A stretch of 64,000 nt of DNA from IMG/VR virus record IMGVR_UViG_3300011774_000001, positions 166,985-230,984 of that record; one strand, written 5' to 3'. This stretch comes from a virus. Lineage: Duplodnaviria > Caudoviricetes. The translations under genes were made by a program, and so were the position numbers. How positions within the stretch are numbered: the first letter of the stretch is position 1; every line of letters begins with the position of its first letter. Below the pieces are notes generated by a model, which was not told where the DNA came from, made no database searches, and saw only the letters and a program-made list of their open reading frames with translations. Positions 2,378-35,145 of this stretch are shown here, piece by piece.

Positions 2378-4764
2378 TGGATCACTTCCTGCTGTCTTCC
2401 GAGCAGTACCAGCGGGACCTTAACGTGGTCCGCACCTACATGAACGACAACGCCTGGTACCTTACCAAGATGCGTGGCCGTGACTTTGAATACAACGTCG
2501 AGTGGATTCGCAAGACGATCGGTAAGGACGGGAAGTTCCCCATCAAGAACCCGTTAGTGACCATTGTTGATAAGGACAAGAATGGTGACCGTTTCATTCG
2601 TAAGGTAGGTTATCTCAACTACCTCAAGAACATCGTAGCCAAAGACCTCATCTGCGCCCCCTCCATGACCACCTACGTGCGTCCTGAGGTGCGACAGTCG
2701 CTGATGGGGGTCTACATCAACGGTAACTTGGCATTGCGCTCTGGGGCTAAGCACGAGTCCCTGGAAGCCAAACTCTCTGCCGACAGCTACGGTGGTGAGA
2801 TCTTCAAGTTGATTGGTGACCGTGAGGCGGAGGGCTGGACCATGCCTCCGTTGACGCCTGAGCTGGAAGCCAAGTTGGCTGACCTGGAACAGAAGTATGG
2901 TTACTACTACGACGTCTCTGAAATTAAGAACAACGAGCAGACCTCGCACAAGATCTTCAACAACGGGATCTCGGGCATGCAGACCATCGGGTCTACTCCG
3001 TTCGTTCTGGTGTCTGCTCACTCCAGCTTGACCTCGGGCTGCCGTTCTGCCGTGTCCTACGGTAACGCCACCATCGAGCGTTTTGTTTCAGGTAGCCGTC
3101 ACTACTGGTCGCCTGAGGTGGTGATCACACAGATCCTGTCTATCTGCCGCGGTACCGACTACGAGAAGTTCGGTGCAGTGATGGAGAAGTACAAGCTCTA
3201 CGTGCCGACCTTCGACGACATCATTGACGCGATCCGTTATTCGACTGAACTGTATTGGACCCACGAAGACTCCATGGAAGAAGTCGGTGAGTTGGTTCAG
3301 ACGCTGACACCAATGGAGCGTGCTGCGTTCCTGTACACCGGTGACATGTTCCACCTGCGTAAACACAACGAAGAGTTCATGCGGGAGTTCTTGAACGAGT
3401 TGTCTGCGGCTAAGAAAGGTACGCATCCTGATCCAATCCCGGTCATCAAATCGATGGACGGTGACCACAAGGCATTGGCCCTGATCCTCTGTGCAGAAGT
3501 GACTGCCGGTAAGAAGGTCAAGGATCTCATCGCCTCGGGTGATCAGCATGCTCTCTCGATGCTTGCACTGACCTATGAAAACATCATGGGTACACTCGAC
3601 AAGTACGTGGACCTGATCCAAACCTTCTGGACCACACTGAACGTTCCGCCAAACATCAGCCGTACTCGTGACATCCGTCGCCGTTCGGTTGTAGGTTCCG
3701 ACACTGACTCCTGCCTGTTCACAGTGCGTGAGTGGGTCAAGTGGAAGAATGGTGCGGCGAAGTTCGACCAACCTTGCCAGGCAACATGGCACACGGTTGT
3801 GTTCATGGCGTGTCAAACCGTGACCCACTCGCTGGCTTGCTTGTCTGCCGGTATGGGTGTGCGTGGTGAGGACGTCAAGAAGTTGGCTATGAAGAACGAG
3901 TACGCCTTCTCGGCATTCGGTCTGACCAACATTGCCAAGCACTACATCGCCTCCATGATCGCTCAAGAAGGTGGTGTGTACTCCAAGGCCAAAGGTGAAA
4001 TCAAGGGCGTGCAGTTTAAGGACTCCAACTCGCCTCCTGAAATCATTGAAGAGTCAAACGGTTACATCAGTTCTGTAATGGATTCGTTGTACCGTACCGG
4101 CGACTTTGAGATCATGCCGATCCTGAAGTCCATGGCCAAGACCGAGGCAGATGTAACTGAGTCCATCAAGAAGGGTGACACCCGGTATCTGAAAGCTGCC
4201 TATGTGCGGCCTAAGTCTGACTACAAGAAGCCGATGTCGTCACACTACTTCCACTACGAACTGTGGCAGAAGGCATTCGCTCACAAGTACGGCCCTGCTC
4301 CGGCATTGCCTTACCGTGCGGTGAAGATCTCGGTGGGACTCAAGAACAAGACCGCCATCAAGCGGTGGGTAGAGGGAATCGAAGACCCAATCATGCGTGC
4401 AGCTCTGGAAGAGATCTACGTGTATGGTGAAGGTGGTGGTGCCAGTGAAGAAGATGATCTGGCTCCAGGTGAGGTTCGCGATATCAAGGAAGAAGAAGGC
4501 GATGTAAGTGAAGACGATGCCCCAGAGAAGGAGAAAGAAAAGGATGACGGCACTGGACCTAAAAAGCCTAAGGCCTCCATCAGTTCCTTCCTCATGCCGC
4601 TGGACATCGTATCGATCAACGGAATCCCAGAAGAGATCCTGCGAGTGGCTAACCTGCGCCGTCAGTCCTACACGACGGTCAGTCCATTCTACTTGACAGC
4701 TGAAACGCTGGGCCTGCCAATGATCAATGCGAACCTCACGAACCTCTTGTCAGATACGCTGTAA
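2377..4764 (+). CDS. Family-B DNA polymerase, subunit with motifs B and C (phiKZ gp50-like)
   Basis: KIFNNGISG (motif B, KxxxNxxxG), GSDTDS (motif C), KHY and EIKGV thumb motifs; motif A and the exonuclease are absent and lie in 35139..36908. Confidence 0.85.
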   Translation: MDHFLLSSEQYQRDLNVVRTYMNDNAWYLTKMRGRDFEYNVEWIRKTIGKDGKFPIKNPLVTIVDKDKNGDRFIRKVGYLNYLKNIVAKDLICAPSMTTYVRPEVRQSLMGVYINGNLALRSGAKHESLEAKLSADSYGGEIFKLIGDREAEGWTMPPLTPELEAKLADLEQKYGYYYDVSEIKNNEQTSHKIFNNGISGMQTIGSTPFVLVSAHSSLTSGCRSAVSYGNATIERFVSGSRHYWSPEVVITQILSICRGTDYEKFGAVMEKYKLYVPTFDDIIDAIRYSTELYWTHEDSMEEVGELVQTLTPMERAAFLYTGDMFHLRKHNEEFMREFLNELSAAKKGTHPDPIPVIKSMDGDHKALALILCAEVTAGKKVKDLIASGDQHALSMLALTYENIMGTLDKYVDLIQTFWTTLNVPPNISRTRDIRRRSVVGSDTDSCLFTVREWVKWKNGAAKFDQPCQATWHTVVFMACQTVTHSLACLSAGMGVRGEDVKKLAMKNEYAFSAFGLTNIAKHYIASMIAQEGGVYSKAKGEIKGVQFKDSNSPPEIIEESNGYISSVMDSLYRTGDFEIMPILKSMAKTEADVTESIKKGDTRYLKAAYVRPKSDYKKPMSSHYFHYELWQKAFAHKYGPAPALPYRAVKISVGLKNKTAIKRWVEGIEDPIMRAALEEIYVYGEGGGASEEDDLAPGEVRDIKEEEGDVSEDDAPEKEKEKDDGTGPKKPKASISSFLMPLDIVSINGIPEEILRVANLRRQSYTTVSPFYLTAETLGLPMINANLTNLLSDTL

Positions 4765-8995: not shown

Positions 8996-10498
8996 GTGGG
9001 ACTACATGCCTACATCGTTGACCATAAGCAGATCCTCGAACAACTCGAAGAACCGCCGCTTGTAGTCAATGACCTGAATCTTGACTTCGGGACCAAAGAA
9101 GGTAAAGATCAGCTGGCCATGTACCTGTCGTTTCAATTCGACGGAGACATCATCCCAGCGGTACCTACCTGTCTGGGCGGCCATATCGGCGGCGAGGACA
9201 AGCTTGGTGTCAAGTGTGAGATCTGCGATACACGGGTAACCAGCCTCGTGGACCGCGCGGTAGATCAGAGCGTCTGGATTCGTCCACCGGAAGGTGTCAA
9301 CGGATTCATTCATCCTGAAGTCTGGAACATTCTGTCTCCTAGACTGACCCCACTCAAGTCGTTCTCGATGATGAGCTGGGTGTGTGACCCCAACTACGGT
9401 GAACAACTGCCAGCGTTCCAGGCGGTACTCGATGAGTACAAGAAGGTGCACAAGCGTGGGTTGAACTACGTGTTGGAACATTTCGATGATGTGATTCGTT
9501 TCATCATGACATCGAAGCTGTGTAACAAACTGTCGCTACAGGACAAGACCGACATTCAGTTGTTCTTGCTGCAAAACCGCGACAAGGTAGTGCAGAAGTA
9601 TTTGCCGCTGCCTAGCTCCATCTTTGTGGTGTCCGAAAAGACAGCGATGGGTACTTACGCTGACGAGAAGACACCTGCCCTGTTGGATGCGATCTACATG
9701 ATCACCTCCACCTACGGATCGGCTATTGCGCTGAACCAACGGCAACGCGAATCGCATGCTGCCAGGTTCATGGCATCCATCGGTCCGTGTTATCAGGCAA
9801 TCTGTACCAAGTTCATCGGCAGTAAGTATGGCCTGGTTCGCCGTCAGTTGATCGGCAGCCGTCTGCACTTTACCGGCCGAGCGGTGATTACATCCATCAG
9901 CGATGCTCACCATTATGAAGAGCTGCATGTACCTTGGGCCTTCGCTGTACAAATCCTGGAACCGCATCTCCAAGCGAAACTCATGCGTCGAGGTTTCTCG
10001 GCCAACGATGCGCTGGAGTTCCTGGAAGACAACACGCTGCAATGGCATCCACTGCTGCGTGAAATGTTCGACGAGTTGATCGCCGAAGCACCGCCTATCG
10101 ATGACTTCCCACCGGGAATCTTCGAAGACATCGACGAGGACCCATCTCTGCTCCGAGGCATTCCGTGCCTGCTGCAGCGTAACCCTTCGTTGACTCGTCT
10201 GTCGGCTCAGTGCCTGCGCATCACCCGAATCAAAGACGACGTGGAAGATTACACCATTTCCGTGTCCAACATGATTCTGGTCAGTTACAACGCCGACTTC
10301 GATGGCGACGAACTGAACTTGCTGCTGTGCCTGGACAAGAAGATGTTGTCTTGGTTCAACCGTTTCCGTCCACACTTGGGCATGCGTTCGCTGCGTGAGC
10401 CGCGTTCCCTGTCTGACAACCAGAAGATCCACGCACCAGTCGCTGCTACATGGGCGCACTATGTGCATCACTCTGAACGCCGAGAGACCGTTCATTAG
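8996..10498 (+). CDS. Non-virion RNA polymerase beta' N-terminal/catalytic subunit (phiKZ gp55/56.1-like), uninterrupted
   Basis: NADFDGD catalytic motif, GRAVITS, QRNPSL, N-terminal Zn ribbon (CEICDT); GTG 8996 with SD GGAG (ATG 8981 alternative). Confidence 0.92.
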   Translation: MGLHAYIVDHKQILEQLEEPPLVVNDLNLDFGTKEGKDQLAMYLSFQFDGDIIPAVPTCLGGHIGGEDKLGVKCEICDTRVTSLVDRAVDQSVWIRPPEGVNGFIHPEVWNILSPRLTPLKSFSMMSWVCDPNYGEQLPAFQAVLDEYKKVHKRGLNYVLEHFDDVIRFIMTSKLCNKLSLQDKTDIQLFLLQNRDKVVQKYLPLPSSIFVVSEKTAMGTYADEKTPALLDAIYMITSTYGSAIALNQRQRESHAARFMASIGPCYQAICTKFIGSKYGLVRRQLIGSRLHFTGRAVITSISDAHHYEELHVPWAFAVQILEPHLQAKLMRRGFSANDALEFLEDNTLQWHPLLREMFDELIAEAPPIDDFPPGIFEDIDEDPSLLRGIPCLLQRNPSLTRLSAQCLRITRIKDDVEDYTISVSNMILVSYNADFDGDELNLLLCLDKKMLSWFNRFRPHLGMRSLREPRSLSDNQKIHAPVAATWAHYVHHSERRETVH

Positions 10499-31638: not shown

Positions 31639-31745
31639 GGGGCACCTGAAGTGTGTTATATAGGAAGGGCGTCTACTAAGATATAGCGGCTGTAATGTGA
31701 TTATAATGAGCCCTATACGCACCCATCCAAAAGGAAATGTTCCAC

Positions 31746-32660
31746 ATGGCAAAAAAACAAGGCGGTTCTTTCGGCAGCCGCAAAGGCGTTCGTACTCCTG
31801 CGGTGATGGTCCAGGGTAACACCATGCGCTTTGGCAAAGATCCTGCCCCATGGTTCGCCGACTTCGACTCCCTGGCGGCTCAGTGCACCGCACTGACCAC
31901 CTCCCCTGCAATCGTGTTGACCTACATCCGCAACGAGGAGTTGATGGGTAAGGTTGACCGCGATGCACTGAACGAAAGCATCCGTTCCATGAACGAGTTG
32001 ATCCTGCGTGAGAAGACTCGTCTCAAGGCTCTGGTTGCTGAAACCAAGATCCTGCGTGAAGGCGCTCCGGCTGAAGGCGATCAGCCTGCCCGTGAAGCGA
32101 TCACCCGCGTTACCCAAGACAACACCATCCCGCTGCTCGACCACGGCGAGAAGTTCCAGGTGTTCATGAACGACTGGCTGCGCGTGATCTTCTTCGCGAT
32201 CGACCAGGTTCTGCAGCACTTCCGCGACGCAGGCGAGGAGATCCCTCTGATCTGCCCAGCGTCCCCTGGTTACGTTGAAACCGAGGCCACCATGGCCATG
32301 GAAGACGTCACCAAGGCTCAGGCCATCCCGTTCAACGAGATCGCCAATGAGGTCAACGAAGAAGACCACCTCGGCCAGGCCATCGTCAGCTTGCTGCAAG
32401 CCAGCCCGCTGAAGGCCCGTCACCGTAAAGGCTTCACCAGTCTTCTGGACATCACCGGCAAGGAGTTCGACAAGTTGGTCGCCGGCGACTATCGCCAGTT
32501 CAGCCTGACCAAACTCCGTGCCATCTACACCAAGATGGAGCTGGACACCTTGGAGGCCGACATTGCTGCGGCTGACGCGGCTGAAGGCGAGAAGCCAGCC
32601 CGCGGCATGACCAGTGCGATCGCTCACCTCGATCCAGTTCCTTTCATCAAAAGCGAGTAA
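31746..32660 (+). CDS. Protein with C-terminal XRE-type HTH-like domain
   Basis: LDITGKEFDKLVAGDYRQFSLTKLRAIY resembles XRE/HTH_37 helices 3-5. Confidence 0.6.
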   Translation: MAKKQGGSFGSRKGVRTPAVMVQGNTMRFGKDPAPWFADFDSLAAQCTALTTSPAIVLTYIRNEELMGKVDRDALNESIRSMNELILREKTRLKALVAETKILREGAPAEGDQPAREAITRVTQDNTIPLLDHGEKFQVFMNDWLRVIFFAIDQVLQHFRDAGEEIPLICPASPGYVETEATMAMEDVTKAQAIPFNEIANEVNEEDHLGQAIVSLLQASPLKARHRKGFTSLLDITGKEFDKLVAGDYRQFSLTKLRAIYTKMELDTLEADIAAADAAEGEKPARGMTSAIAHLDPVPFIKSE

Positions 32661-32663
32661 GTC

Positions 32664-34304
32664 ATGAACGTAGAAGATTCTGATCTGCCTGAAGAAGGCG
32701 CAGGTCTGGTCAGCGAGCCTGAGTTCGAAGTGGACGACAGTGTTGCGGTTCCTACCGCAGCTCTGCCACCGGCTGAACCTGCTCCAGAACCCCCTCGCAC
32801 CGAACTGGCTTTCGACGAAGATTCCGATCTGATGTCTGAAGCCGAGGCCAGCGGCAATGCCGAAGCCGAGAAGCCGTTCTTCGAGAACCGTCACTGGACT
32901 AACGAAAACGTCATCGCTCAAGACCCAATGGTCAAAGATCGTCCTGACAACTTCGCCCCTCCAATGACGCTGATCGTGCCGACCATGTCGTCCGAAGACA
33001 CTGAGCGCGTCGGTACTGCACTGTCTCCTGTCATGAAGCACCTGGCGCCTGCCAGTCGTGAATGGGTGCAGAAGGTGTTGGCTGGCCAGATGATGGTCAT
33101 GGCCGACGACATGTTCATGCAGGCCCTGGGTCGTGAAGGCTCCCAGTGGGTGCAACGTCCAGACTACGACGGCACCAAACTCGTTGCCCAAGTCCCTGGC
33201 GTACAAGCCCCTGCTCCGGGTGCAATCCTCACCGGCCAAGACGCCGAGATCCACATGGCGCAACAGACTGGCAAGTACGCTCGTCTGATGTTCCCTCTGG
33301 TCCACTCTGGCGTTTGGCTGAACGTGAACGTACCTGAAGGCGATGAGCTGCACACGTTGGAAGAACACATCGCTGCTGCCAAGTATGACCTGGGCTGGCT
33401 GTCCAAGGGTCTGGTGTACTCCAACACTTCGGTGCTGCAGAACATCATTCTGGCCAACTTCATCCTGGAACGTGTGGTGAACTCCTCGGCAGCCACGACC
33501 AGCGTTGAATACCTGAAGAAAGTCATCCGTGTAACCGACCTGAACCTCATGGCGGCTCACATGGCTTCGGCTATCTATCCTTCGGGCTTCCCGCTGGAGC
33601 GCCCATGTTCGGCTTCCCCGGTCAGCTGCCACGAAGTGACCAAGGGTATCCTGCGCCTGTCGAAGATCATCTGGGTTGACCAGAACGGTCTGTCGATCGA
33701 GCAGAAGAAGTTCATGGCCACTCGTCTCACCGGCCACAAGAAAACCATGGAAGAGTTCCTGAAGTATCAGGAGATGTTCCCTGGCGCTGAAACCCGTGTA
33801 GAGCAGATCGCTCCAAACGTCTGGGTTCGCTTTGCCGCTCCTACCCTGGAGCAGTACGAGCAGTCCGGCTATGCATGGATCGATTCGATCGAGCGCGATG
33901 CCAACCAGGTGCTCAGCAGCCCGTCTGGTGCTCAGCTCAACAGCTACATGACCAAGCAGTACCAACTGCAGTCGATGCGTCAGTACGCTCACTGGGTCGA
34001 TGCCATCATCTATCCAAACGACGTACAGGTCACTAGCCGCGAAGACATCAACAACCTGTTGGCCAAGTCTTCGTCCAACACCGAAATGGTTGAGAAGTTC
34101 ATGAAGGGCGTCAAGCGCTTCATCGACGACTGCACCGTGGGTGTTGTGGGTATCAACAACTACGACTGCCCGAAATGTGGCAACTCGCAGACCCCGGAAG
34201 CCTCGCGCAATCCGAAGTTGATCCCTCTTGACCCGATGCACACTTTTTTCACCCTCAGCGGCCTGAAGACTCAAACTATTCAATCGGCAAATATGGCGTA
34301 CTAG
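32664..34304 (+). CDS. Putative tail/baseplate assembly chaperone (G-type form)
   Basis: 546 aa; acidic N-terminus; CxxxxxxC and YDCPKCG Cys motifs; slippery heptamer near the 3' end. Confidence 0.6.
   Translation: MNVEDSDLPEEGAGLVSEPEFEVDDSVAVPTAALPPAEPAPEPPRTELAFDEDSDLMSEAEASGNAEAEKPFFENRHWTNENVIAQDPMVKDRPDNFAPPMTLIVPTMSSEDTERVGTALSPVMKHLAPASREWVQKVLAGQMMVMADDMFMQALGREGSQWVQRPDYDGTKLVAQVPGVQAPAPGAILTGQDAEIHMAQQTGKYARLMFPLVHSGVWLNVNVPEGDELHTLEEHIAAAKYDLGWLSKGLVYSNTSVLQNIILANFILERVVNSSAATTSVEYLKKVIRVTDLNLMAAHMASAIYPSGFPLERPCSASPVSCHEVTKGILRLSKIIWVDQNGLSIEQKKFMATRLTGHKKTMEEFLKYQEMFPGAETRVEQIAPNVWVRFAAPTLEQYEQSGYAWIDSIERDANQVLSSPSGAQLNSYMTKQYQLQSMRQYAHWVDAIIYPNDVQVTSREDINNLLAKSSSNTEMVEKFMKGVKRFIDDCTVGVVGINNYDCPKCGNSQTPEASRNPKLIPLDPMHTFFTLSGLKTQTIQSANMAY
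34244..34250 (+). other. Candidate -1 ribosomal frameshift heptamer T TTT TTC
   Basis: X XXY YYZ in the correct phase; the -1 frame is open from 34232 to 34792. Confidence 0.65.
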
Positions 34305-34792
34305 AGTCTTCGATCGTCAAGGCCAATGGTGGTCAGGTTGTTAACACAAGGCGTCACGTTAACGACCCCCACTTTGGCCTTGACACTGAGGTTTATGACC
34401 GAGAACTGGATCGTATCAAACAAGACACGATGTCACTCGGTGAACGCCCTGACAATGTAGACAGTGAGATGATGATGCGGGCTCTGTATGAGACTGCCTT
34501 CGGAATCCACAACCACTACAGTGGGAAGCAACATCCTTTTGCTCCGGTCGCGGCATATCCCAAGGAAGACTTCCTACCCTACTCCAGTCGTTTCCGAGAT
34601 TACGCTCGTTACATGGATGAGCGGATCTTAGAGGCCACTGGTATTCCGATGGACCGTTTCTTTGCCAGGCCGAGGCCTGAGATTGAGACGATCTTTGGGC
34701 TTGTCAGGTTGCGTAACAGAAAGCAGGTGGCTACCGCTGAAGAAGTGGCAGCAGCTGCCGCTAGAAAAATGAAAGAGGGCAAAGGGCAATGA
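34250..34792 (+). CDS. -1-frame extension (T-type part) of the chaperone; ORF track start 34430
   Basis: Open 66 codons upstream of the first ATG, which lacks an SD; C-terminal TGIPMDRFFARPRPEIETIF resembles GT/E'-type extensions. Confidence 0.6.
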   Translation, partial: HPQRPEDSNYSIGKYGVLESSIVKANGGQVVNTRRHVNDPHFGLDTEVYDRELDRIKQDTMSLGERPDNVDSEMMMRALYETAFGIHNHYSGKQHPFAPVAAYPKEDFLPYSSRFRDYARYMDERILEATGIPMDRFFARPRPEIETIFGLVRLRNRKQVATAEEVAAAAARKMKEGKGQ

Positions 34793-35100
34793 ACACCACC
34801 ATGCAGCAAGCCGCGCGTCAAGAGAAGCTCGATGATGCTTTGTCTGGTACGACTGTGCCTAACTCCATTGAGGACATGGGGTTGGTCATGGACCGCCATA
34901 CCAAGCAGATCATCAACTTCCGCCGTATGTTCAGTGAGTCCGAGGTGTGCAAGCATTTCGGTATCACCAAGGGCCAGCTCAAGAAAGCGATCAAGCGCAA
35001 GGAGTTTCCGATCGCCACTGTACTGCGTCCTGGCAACAAACCGTTCTGGGCAGATACCATCATTGCTCGGACCCATCGTCAAGATGATCCTGACCTGTAA
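34789..35100 (+). CDS. AlpA/excisionase-like HTH protein
   Basis: MFSESEVCKHFGITKGQLKKAIKRKEFP...PFW matches the AlpA pattern. Confidence 0.65.
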   Translation: MNTTMQQAARQEKLDDALSGTTVPNSIEDMGLVMDRHTKQIINFRRMFSESEVCKHFGITKGQLKKAIKRKEFPIATVLRPGNKPFWADTIIARTHRQDDPDL

Positions 35101-35101
35101 C

Positions 35102-35145
35102 GGCATAGCCTCCCTCCCCTTGCGGGGAGGGAGGGCTTTTATGCC
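35102..35145. terminator. Bidirectional terminator-like hairpin
   Basis: GGCATAG-CCTCCCTCCCC-TTGC-GGGGAGGGAGG-GCTTT-TATGCC. Confidence 0.75.

Follow-up and report, generated by a model that had tools for sequence, protein, structure and literature searches.

A T run near the end of the gp077-like gene of nucleus-forming jumbo phages as a probable -1 frameshift site

Known two-product genes and the layout of the locus

Genes that give a short product and a C-terminally extended one through a change of reading frame have been described in several systems. A conserved -1 frameshift in tail assembly chaperone genes was reportedly documented by Xu, Hendrix and Duda in 2004, and the pairs lambda G/GT and P2 E/E+E', with those of Mu and HK97, are of this type. 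In T7 gene 10A/10B, tRNA-Phe slips by -1 on G_GUU_UUC near the end of gene 10, at roughly 10%, and in Thermus dnaX (A9), the transposases of insertion sequence (IS) elements and Shigella mxiE (T9) the recoding is realized by slippage during transcription. The present work concerns a stretch of 64,000 nucleotides (nt) of a tailed-phage genome (positions 166,985 to 230,984 of IMG/VR record IMGVR_UViG_3300011774_000001; hereafter the window), in which a gene of the phiKZ gp077 family carries a run of T near its end and is followed, in the -1 frame, by a coding stretch that has no evident start. The gp077 gene belongs to the conserved core of the nucleus-forming, phiKZ-like jumbo phages, a group under development both for therapeutic use and as models in cell biology. 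From the comparison of related loci, we hold with high confidence that recoding at the T run would fuse the 546-amino acid (aa) protein to the -1 open reading frame (ORF). The parts of the site are as follows, in positions of the window.

32664-34304, plus strand: zero-frame ORF of 546 aa, the short product (ORF listing and translation).
34244-34250, plus strand: putative slippery heptamer T_TTT_TTC in X_XXY_YYZ phase, at codons Phe528-Phe529 (sequence; five to eight T at the homologous Phe-Phe pair in 39 of 39 lineages).
34250-34792, plus strand: -1-frame extension of 180 codons and a stop, as it would be read after the slip (match to phrog_12109, tblastn and alignment of -1-frame products).
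34251-34304, plus strand: presumed dual-coding overlap of the short-form tail (frame 0) and the start of the extension (frame -1) (column variation).
34255-34266, plus strand: small hairpin TCAG-CGGC-CTGA 3' of the heptamer (sequence).
34305-34429, plus strand: apparent 'intergenic' stretch, predicted to be start-less -1-frame coding sequence (variation by codon position).
34355-34378, plus strand: motif HVNDPHFG (family pattern H[VIL]x5FG) in the -1 frame, 5' of the ATG (alignment of 21 -1-frame products).
34430-34432, plus strand: ATG with which an ORF finder would begin a 120-aa ORF; most probably a Met codon internal to the extension (the family has no conserved start position).

In the zero frame, the codons ACT TTT TTC occupy 34242-34250 and lie 17 codons 5' of the TAG (34302-34304) that closes the 546-aa ORF. 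In the -1 frame, a TGA at 34229-34231 is followed by an open stretch over 34232-34792; the earliest ATG, GTG or TTG of this stretch is the ATG at 34430, 66 codons in, and no Shine-Dalgarno-like GGAG or GAGG was seen in the bases just 5' of it. After a slip, 529 residues of the first frame and 180 of the second would make up a product of 709 aa with the junction ...HTFF-HPQRPEDSNY. The tryptic peptide predicted across this junction is LIPLDPMHTFFHPQR in the window phage, whereas in the relatives it would end in ...DVPQLFFYPK in Goslar and contain ...MLSTFFYFGGLEVK in phiKZ. An initial annotation, made from the letters alone, had already read the site in this way: its phased heptamer 17 codons before the stop is exact, the opening of the -1 frame at 34232 and the first ATG at 34430 without a Shine-Dalgarno sequence hold, its fusion of about 709 aa is recovered on recomputation, and the stem that it called weak lies where the list above places it. 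The T6 run at 34244 is the sole one within the plus-strand coding regions of the window. The layout is far beyond chance expectation, and it is common to all 39 orthologous loci compared.

Compared with lambda G/GT, P2 E/E+E', Mu and HK97, the likeness begins with a slippery heptamer near the 3' end of the upstream ORF. As in the G/GT-type pairs, the downstream -1 ORF has neither a start codon nor a ribosome-binding site to itself, the long form would add a domain to a nearly complete short form, no sign of a strong stimulator is seen, and the layout has been kept despite divergence beyond recognition and never resolved to a simple fusion. On the other side, the gp077 family is related to gpG, gpT or gpE neither in sequence nor through Pfam; the ESM Atlas lists a GpE cluster with a feature score of 0.78, which is at chance level. 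The lambda gpG has about 140 aa, whereas the upstream protein here has about 540; the lambda heptamer is G_GGA_AAG rather than T_TTT_TTN; and lambda G/GT is absent from virions, whereas the Goslar orthologue has been detected in virion preparations that also contained PhuZ and chimallin. Moreover, the lambda pair lies between the tail tube and tape-measure genes, whereas gp077 lies among helicase, polymerase and RNA polymerase genes: in the window the neighbours are a helicase-like gene, ORFs without assigned function and a DNA polymerase gene, with no tail tube or tape-measure gene adjoining, and in phiKZ the locus stands between helicase/RNA polymerase genes and gp79-gp82. That is to say, the gp077 pair is likened to lambda G/GT by design, not by membership. 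The initial annotation had called it a G/GT-type chaperone; the two-form -1 design is what comparison upholds of this, while the class itself fails on the missing family match, the wrong kind of locus and a size about four times that of gpG, the unusual size and the lack of tail genes beside it having been remarked already at that time.

Conservation of the T run and of the -1 frame

For the comparison, 24 loci from GenBank and 31 metagenomic or IMG/VR loci were collected and near-duplicates were removed, leaving 39 lineages. They derive from phages of Pseudomonas, Erwinia, Xanthomonas, Ralstonia, Burkholderia, Salmonella, Serratia, Vibrio, Aeromonas, Escherichia and Bacillus and from metagenomes, and take in phiKZ, PhiPA3, Goslar, PCH45, SPN3US-like and EL-like phages and Bacillus phage AgentSmith. 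In every lineage a run of five to eight T is found at the codons of a conserved Phe-Phe pair, 27-135 nt before the zero-frame stop, and from this run the -1 frame is open for 154-186 codons; in the +1 frame, the open stretch there is only 3-103 codons long. The longest run has eight T, and 11 of the 39 lineages have only five or six. In the zero-frame alignment Phe529 is invariant and Phe528 is conserved in at least 90%. T_TTT_TTN, with TTC, TTT, TTA or TTG as its ending, stands in phase in 35 of the 39, the common minimum being T_TTT. An alignment of orthologues for the heptamer and the -1 phase was what the initial annotation had proposed as a check, and these counts give its hidden -1 recoding site the support of comparison.

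Codon choice at the pair points in the same direction. All 39 lineages use TTT as the first Phe codon, against a preference for TTC elsewhere in the same genes (166 TTT vs 427 TTC, that is, 28% TTT; 1 vs 14 in the window gene), and T4 gp26 has TTC TTT at the aligned Phe-Phe. For these reasons the T run appears to be selected for itself, beyond the coding of Phe-Phe. In addition, the residue that precedes the pair varies (T, A, V, L, S, G, N, Y or I), so that the in-phase T_TTT_TTN of 35 lineages means a T directly 5' of the Phe codons in spite of the variable residue.

A difference in run length was observed in Xanthomonas phage RTH11 (OQ790161.1, 2440-2560 of the locus), whose run has one T fewer (7) than that of its close relative LucasX (8). 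In RTH11 the upstream part, the short-form tail and the extension stand in three different frames, and a run-on ORF of 627 aa is annotated; a homopolymer sequencing error is the most likely cause, real length variation being the other possibility. The independent contigs X1 and X13 carry an identical T6, and contigs of natural variants show no indel at the run, within the limit that contigs cannot show rare variants.

The coding constraint on the -1 frame was followed by codon position in five relatives at 52-81% protein identity, in which the 34 nt 3' of the run are identical. In the segment 5' of the run, the variable columns at the three zero-frame codon positions number 16, 10 and 30 of 39. 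Within the overlap (34251-34304) 14 of 54 columns are variable and no third-position bias is found in either frame, and such suppression of variation without bias fits dual coding. In the spacer (34305-34429), the three -1-frame codon positions are variable in 16 of 37, 16 of 38 and 33 of 38 columns, and the pattern after the ATG at 34430 (58, 48 and 95 of 119) matches that of the spacer. Among the contigs of natural variants, four of the five spacer differences fall on -1-frame third positions. To judge from this column variation, the spacer 34305-34429 is evolving as -1-frame coding sequence under purifying selection.

The products of the -1 frame give the same picture at greater distance. 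When 21 of them were aligned, the junction was seen to keep FFYPxxPE, and in H[VIL]x5FG the Phe is invariant and the Gly conserved in at least 90%, down to 17% overall identity. Conservation of 34250-34430 as protein in the -1 frame, which the initial annotation had named as a further check, is thus found both in the third-position excess of the spacer and in an invariant Phe. Most of the non-redundant tabulated loci have no ATG, GTG or TTG before this motif, and the window has none. A profile of the extension domain, searched against 1.84 billion representatives, matched 1445 clusters, 946 of them at E values below 1e-10. The best 150 of the 1445 clusters are 103-186 aa long, and their called N-termini are scattered over profile positions 1 to 64; there is accordingly no conserved start, and this is the pattern produced by gene callers when a real start is lacking. 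No long in-frame fusion of the extension occurred among these best 150 of 1445 clusters, nor in a word-based search, which is a weak one, and the lack of a fused form suggests that both products are kept. That the downstream ORF would have no initiation of its own, the ATG at 34430 not being the true N-terminus of the domain, is strongly supported by these sequence patterns.

With regard to identity, the upstream protein matches phrog_4585 (E 2e-98), and the -1 frame matches phrog_12109 from its residue 38 onwards, that is, from 29 codons 5' of the ATG at 34430. A tblastn search with the upstream protein gave 217-246 jumbo-phage records, all below 36% identity, and a blastn search of the locus against phage records gave no match, with the proviso that near-identical records may be absent from that set. 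When the 186-codon -1 frame was used in tblastn, LucasX, pEa_SNUABM_54, DT01, FLC9 and RTH11 matched from query residue 1-5, and the matched stretch extends into the last part of the upstream gene. According to notes in the PhiPA3 record, its gp074 corresponds to phiKZ gp077, 201phi2-1 gp136 and EL gp047, and the next gene, gp073, to 201phi2-1 gp135; in Goslar the orthologue of the 546-aa protein is gp081 and the downstream ORF is gp082. In phiKZ (NC_004629, minus strand, 9443-9903 of the locus) gp076.4 is annotated with 80 aa, the frame being open for 171 codons back to a T7 run in gp077, and the conserved motif, here HILHPNFG, falls in the unannotated part upstream of gp076.4. The 'gp77' of the Goslar and PCH45 papers was set aside, these being different genes.

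None of the 24 GenBank records carries a slippage annotation, and all of them show two separate genes. In Erwinia phage Simmy50 the annotated start of the downstream gene, gp271 (2232-2780 of the locus), is pushed 136 nt into the upstream gene, and this placement is a symptom of the absence of a real start. The literature searched on phiKZ, Chimalliviridae and jumbo phages holds no account of a frameshift in the gp077 gene; the initial annotation, too, had known of no description in phiKZ-like phages. The frameshift in the gp077 family is very likely a family-wide addition to a known kind of recoding. If this is true, the locus is mis-annotated in every genome record of the group that was examined: phiKZ gp076.4, PhiPA3 gp073, Goslar gp082 and others would each be the C-terminal part of a protein of about 700 aa instead of a gene, their called N-termini would be arbitrary, and a family-wide event with more than 1400 extension-domain clusters would join the short list of conserved phage frameshifts.

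Mechanism of recoding and rival explanations

As to how the frame would be changed, a programmed -1 ribosomal frameshift at T_TTT_TTC (34244-34250) is probable in our view, and we infer both the ribosomal mechanism and its efficiency. Slippage by the ribosome is favoured because the heptamer is in phase in 35 of 39 lineages and because the run never exceeds eight T and often has five or six. Runs of 5-8 T are short for the known slippage of RNA polymerases and sufficient for that of tRNA-Phe. Most ribosomes would remain in frame 0 and terminate at 34304, giving the 546-aa protein with its last helix complete, while a minority would slip by -1 with the tRNA-Phe molecules sitting on TTT TTC, and these would read the -1 frame to 34792 and give the 709-aa protein. 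In the long form, the last 17 residues would give way to a linker that is rich in Pro and probably disordered, and to about 135 aa of helical domain ending in a long helix; the downstream ORF would exist solely as this C-terminal extension. The two isoforms may then act jointly, at a fixed ratio, in the assembly of the tail or baseplate hub, the extension serving, as in lambda G/GT, to tether a second partner. T7 10A/10B offers the likeness of a Phe-codon slip in a U-run near the stop of a morphogenetic gene, leading to a C-terminally extended minor isoform; it differs in its short extension, some 50 aa that do not form a separate, conserved domain, and in the protein family and role.

Proteome data from a relative can be set beside this scheme. 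In the Goslar virion, gp081 (62.6 kDa, the orthologue) was represented by 24 peptides, with an estimated 15-35 copies (about 22), and gp082 by 1 peptide, with an estimated 2-5 copies (about 3) (bioRxiv 10.64898/2026.04.21.720040, Table S4). The database used for the mass spectrometry search did not include the fusion sequence. The same preparation also held abundant PhuZ and chimallin (bioRxiv 10.64898/2026.04.21.720040), for which reason the association of gp081 with the virion is uncertain. Counts of 24 and 1 are compatible with a minor long form and prove nothing. The structural model of Goslar from cryo-electron microscopy includes neither gp081 nor gp082, and a PDB sequence search found the gp077 family absent from solved structures.

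Several points weigh against the ribosomal scheme or against recoding as such. The support for recoding is comparative inference throughout, and the Goslar signal for gp082 is a single peptide, from a preparation containing PhuZ and chimallin. The phase is non-canonical in four of the 39 lineages, namely G_TTT_TTT in PhiPA3, FLC9 and L025 and GTT_TTT_A, with five T, in L023; in those four it is single-tRNA slippage on T_TTT alone that would work. No conserved stimulatory structure was found, since folds of the 80 nt 3' of the run have z scores from -3.1 to +1.75 and no common shape, and Shine-Dalgarno-like motifs 5' of the run are not enriched (3 of 39 loci vs 16% in controls). Finally, the conservation of phase does not cleanly discriminate ribosomal from transcriptional slippage, because Phe-Phe in frame 0 together with Phe-Phe/Tyr in frame -1 partly forces it. 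An 8-bp pairing of GAAGACTC with GAGTCTTC (34265-34272 with 34305-34312) was considered as a stimulator and rejected, as it is not conserved in a relative of 81% identity. The sole conserved element right after the run, ACCCT, owes its conservation to the two coding frames. Stimulatory elements are not obligatory for -1 frameshifting, and lambda G/GT is not known to have one.

Among the other explanations, programmed transcriptional slippage would lead to the same 709-aa fusion: the non-virion RNA polymerase of the phage (or the host enzyme, in reporters) would stutter on the A-run template and leave some mRNAs with one U more or two U fewer. Chimallivirus phages transcribe with their own highly divergent RNA polymerases, and we know of no characterisation of the slippage behaviour of these enzymes. 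What is conserved is, moreover, a homopolymeric T run of variable length (5-8), out of canonical phase in four lineages, for which neither the folds nor the Shine-Dalgarno-like motifs supplied a ribosomal stimulator, and the difference of 7 T in RTH11 from 8 T in LucasX, which breaks the frame relation, would make it indel-prone at some level. An A/T homopolymer at the frame junction and the same two-product outcome are also what the known transcriptional systems have; the runs here, however, are of 5-8 nt and mostly in the ribosomal X_XXY_YYZ phase. Slippage of multisubunit RNA polymerases needs about nine or more A/T, as in Thermus dnaX, IS elements and Shigella mxiE, whereas no lineage has more than eight T and 11 of 39 have just five or six, even though a slipping polymerase should have led to selection for longer runs. 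Retention of the precise, in-phase ribosomal heptamer by 35 of 39 lineages argues against this explanation as well, and so does the uniform run length in the contigs of natural variants, rare variants being beyond what contigs can show. Weighing these points together, we consider transcriptional slippage unlikely.

A more conventional explanation is that no fusion is made, that the downstream ORF is a separate gene starting from the ATG at 34430 or from a non-canonical codon, and that the T run merely codes for Phe-Phe. The two-gene annotation without slippage in all 24 GenBank records speaks for it, as does a TTG or ATG between the stop and the motif in PhiPA3, RP12, L013, L025 and L027. Against it, a start is lacking 5' of the motif in most of the tabulated non-redundant loci, called starts spread over 64 profile positions, and in no locus does a -1-frame stop intervene between the run and the downstream ORF. 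In the window itself, the 66 codons before 34430 have no start and yet are under purifying selection in the -1 frame and contain residues invariant in the family. Nor does the coding of Phe-Phe explain TTT in 39 of 39 lineages against the TTC preference, with a conserved wobble T before it in 35 of 39. A separate gene is therefore rated as highly improbable. That the two frames are an artefact or a product of decay, with one true 709-aa ORF broken by a homopolymer length error or a recent inactivating indel, is scarcely credible: homopolymer runs are error-prone and RTH11 shows such a discrepancy, but the same frame relation recurs in 39 independent lineages from many sequencing projects, contigs X1 and X13 carry T6 independently, the zero-frame tail after Phe-Phe is conserved and modelled in the last helix, and the best 150 of 1445 clusters include no in-frame fused form.

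Predicted fold, T4 gp26 likeness and surroundings of the gene

Neither part of the predicted fusion matched a Pfam family at E values up to 0.1, tail-assembly-chaperone families included, and sequence and profile searches of the PDB with either part gave nothing relevant. The upstream protein was modelled with AlphaFold2 from 28 sequences, with a predicted local distance difference test (pLDDT) score of 80 and a predicted template-modelling score of 0.79, residues 1-67 being disordered. As the Phe-Phe pair lies inside the last helix (524-545), the slip would replace the end of that helix. The zero-frame tail behind the pair is conserved as FFTL..K/R, with Leu531 invariant and Lys535 conserved in at least 90%, and is modelled within the same helix. 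The model of the extension has an overall pLDDT of 65, in which about the first 45 residues are disordered and short helices are followed by a confident long C-terminal helix.

Searching the PDB with Foldseek and VIA-align produced no convincing match for either model, the best Z scores being 6.2 and 5.6, for single helices or helical hairpins. In BFVD, the Foldseek matches of the upstream protein are headed by jumbo-phage orthologues, which are followed by entries named 'baseplate hub assembly protein, T4-like' at E 6e-5 to 1e-3; their template-modelling (TM) scores are 0.5-0.56 when normalised to the target, in a comparison of one prediction with another. The ESM Atlas gave a structure row with a TM score of 0.59 (by the shorter protein) over 242 aligned residues, in which 95% of the members carry PF12322 T4_baseplate. 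A Foldseek search of both parts, also suggested by the initial annotation, thus failed against solved structures and, for the upstream part, turned up predicted structures resembling T4 gp26; to this extent its guess of an assembly chaperone was a sensible pointer. The PF12322 hidden Markov model itself matched none of 28 family members, even at E values up to 10. When the family was aligned to T4 gp26 with hhalign, just the C-terminal 40 columns (CPxCG ... FFxL) were aligned, at a probability of 13%; the T4 gp26 sequence carries CPxCG and ends in FFELL. Two GenBank annotators label orthologues as baseplate or gp26-like, and PDB searches turned up no solved gp26 structure.

On the strength of the BFVD matches, the Atlas clusters with PF12322, the C-terminal hhalign segment and the annotators' labels, we regard the family as a putative distant and enlarged relative of T4 gp26, beyond recognition by Pfam. 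Besides a resemblance between predicted folds and the C-terminal CPxCG ... FFxL, T4 gp26 (PF12322) has in common with it the feature of two nested products from one gene (gp26 and gp26'). It differs in size (208 aa vs about 540), in making its second product by internal initiation rather than by frameshifting, and in having TTC TTT and no slippery run. A slip from T4 gene 26 into gene 25 was likewise considered and rejected, for although gene 25 stands in the -1 frame (TAATG), the codons are TTC TTT without a slippery run (3803-4429 of the T4 locus).

A role of the upstream protein in baseplate hub or tail assembly is a reasonable suggestion to which we give an even chance. Should it hold together with the frameshift, recoding would be linked to an assembly factor of the T4 gp26 kind, a protein whose function has resisted explanation for decades. 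A bolder proposal is that the gp26-like hub protein would be the long-missing G/GT counterpart in T4-like and jumbo myoviruses, which would extend the rule of short and long frameshift products to Chimalliviridae through an unrelated family, and/or that the divergent phage RNA polymerase would slip on runs of 5-8 U, as a new polymerase-programmed recoding; this we find doubtful. Conserved Cys pairs were also noted in the upstream protein, ERPCx6-7C (33600-33630, residues about 314-323) and CPxCG (34170-34185, residues about 502-505). Their pattern suggests a candidate four-Cys zinc site, and T4 gp26 has the CPxCG half of the set at the aligned place.

The remaining features of the transcription unit lie downstream of the -1 ORF.

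34789-35100, plus strand: next ORF, 103 aa, whose ATG overlaps the stop of the -1 ORF (ATGA); same operon (sequence).
35109-35134, plus strand: strong intrinsic-terminator-like hairpin of 11 pairs, 9 of them G-C, ending the unit (hairpin search).

The 103-aa ORF has a weak Pfam match to HTH_17 (E 0.022), which is below the cut-off. A terminator search of the locus found none between the two frames of the gp077-like gene. On the upstream side, the neighbour at 31737-32660 was considered as the counterpart of the gp078-like neighbour of the relatives and rejected, as it is not similar. Opposite the gp077-like gene, the minus strand contains an ORF of 856 codons with a TTG start (31713-34283), which was taken as spurious.

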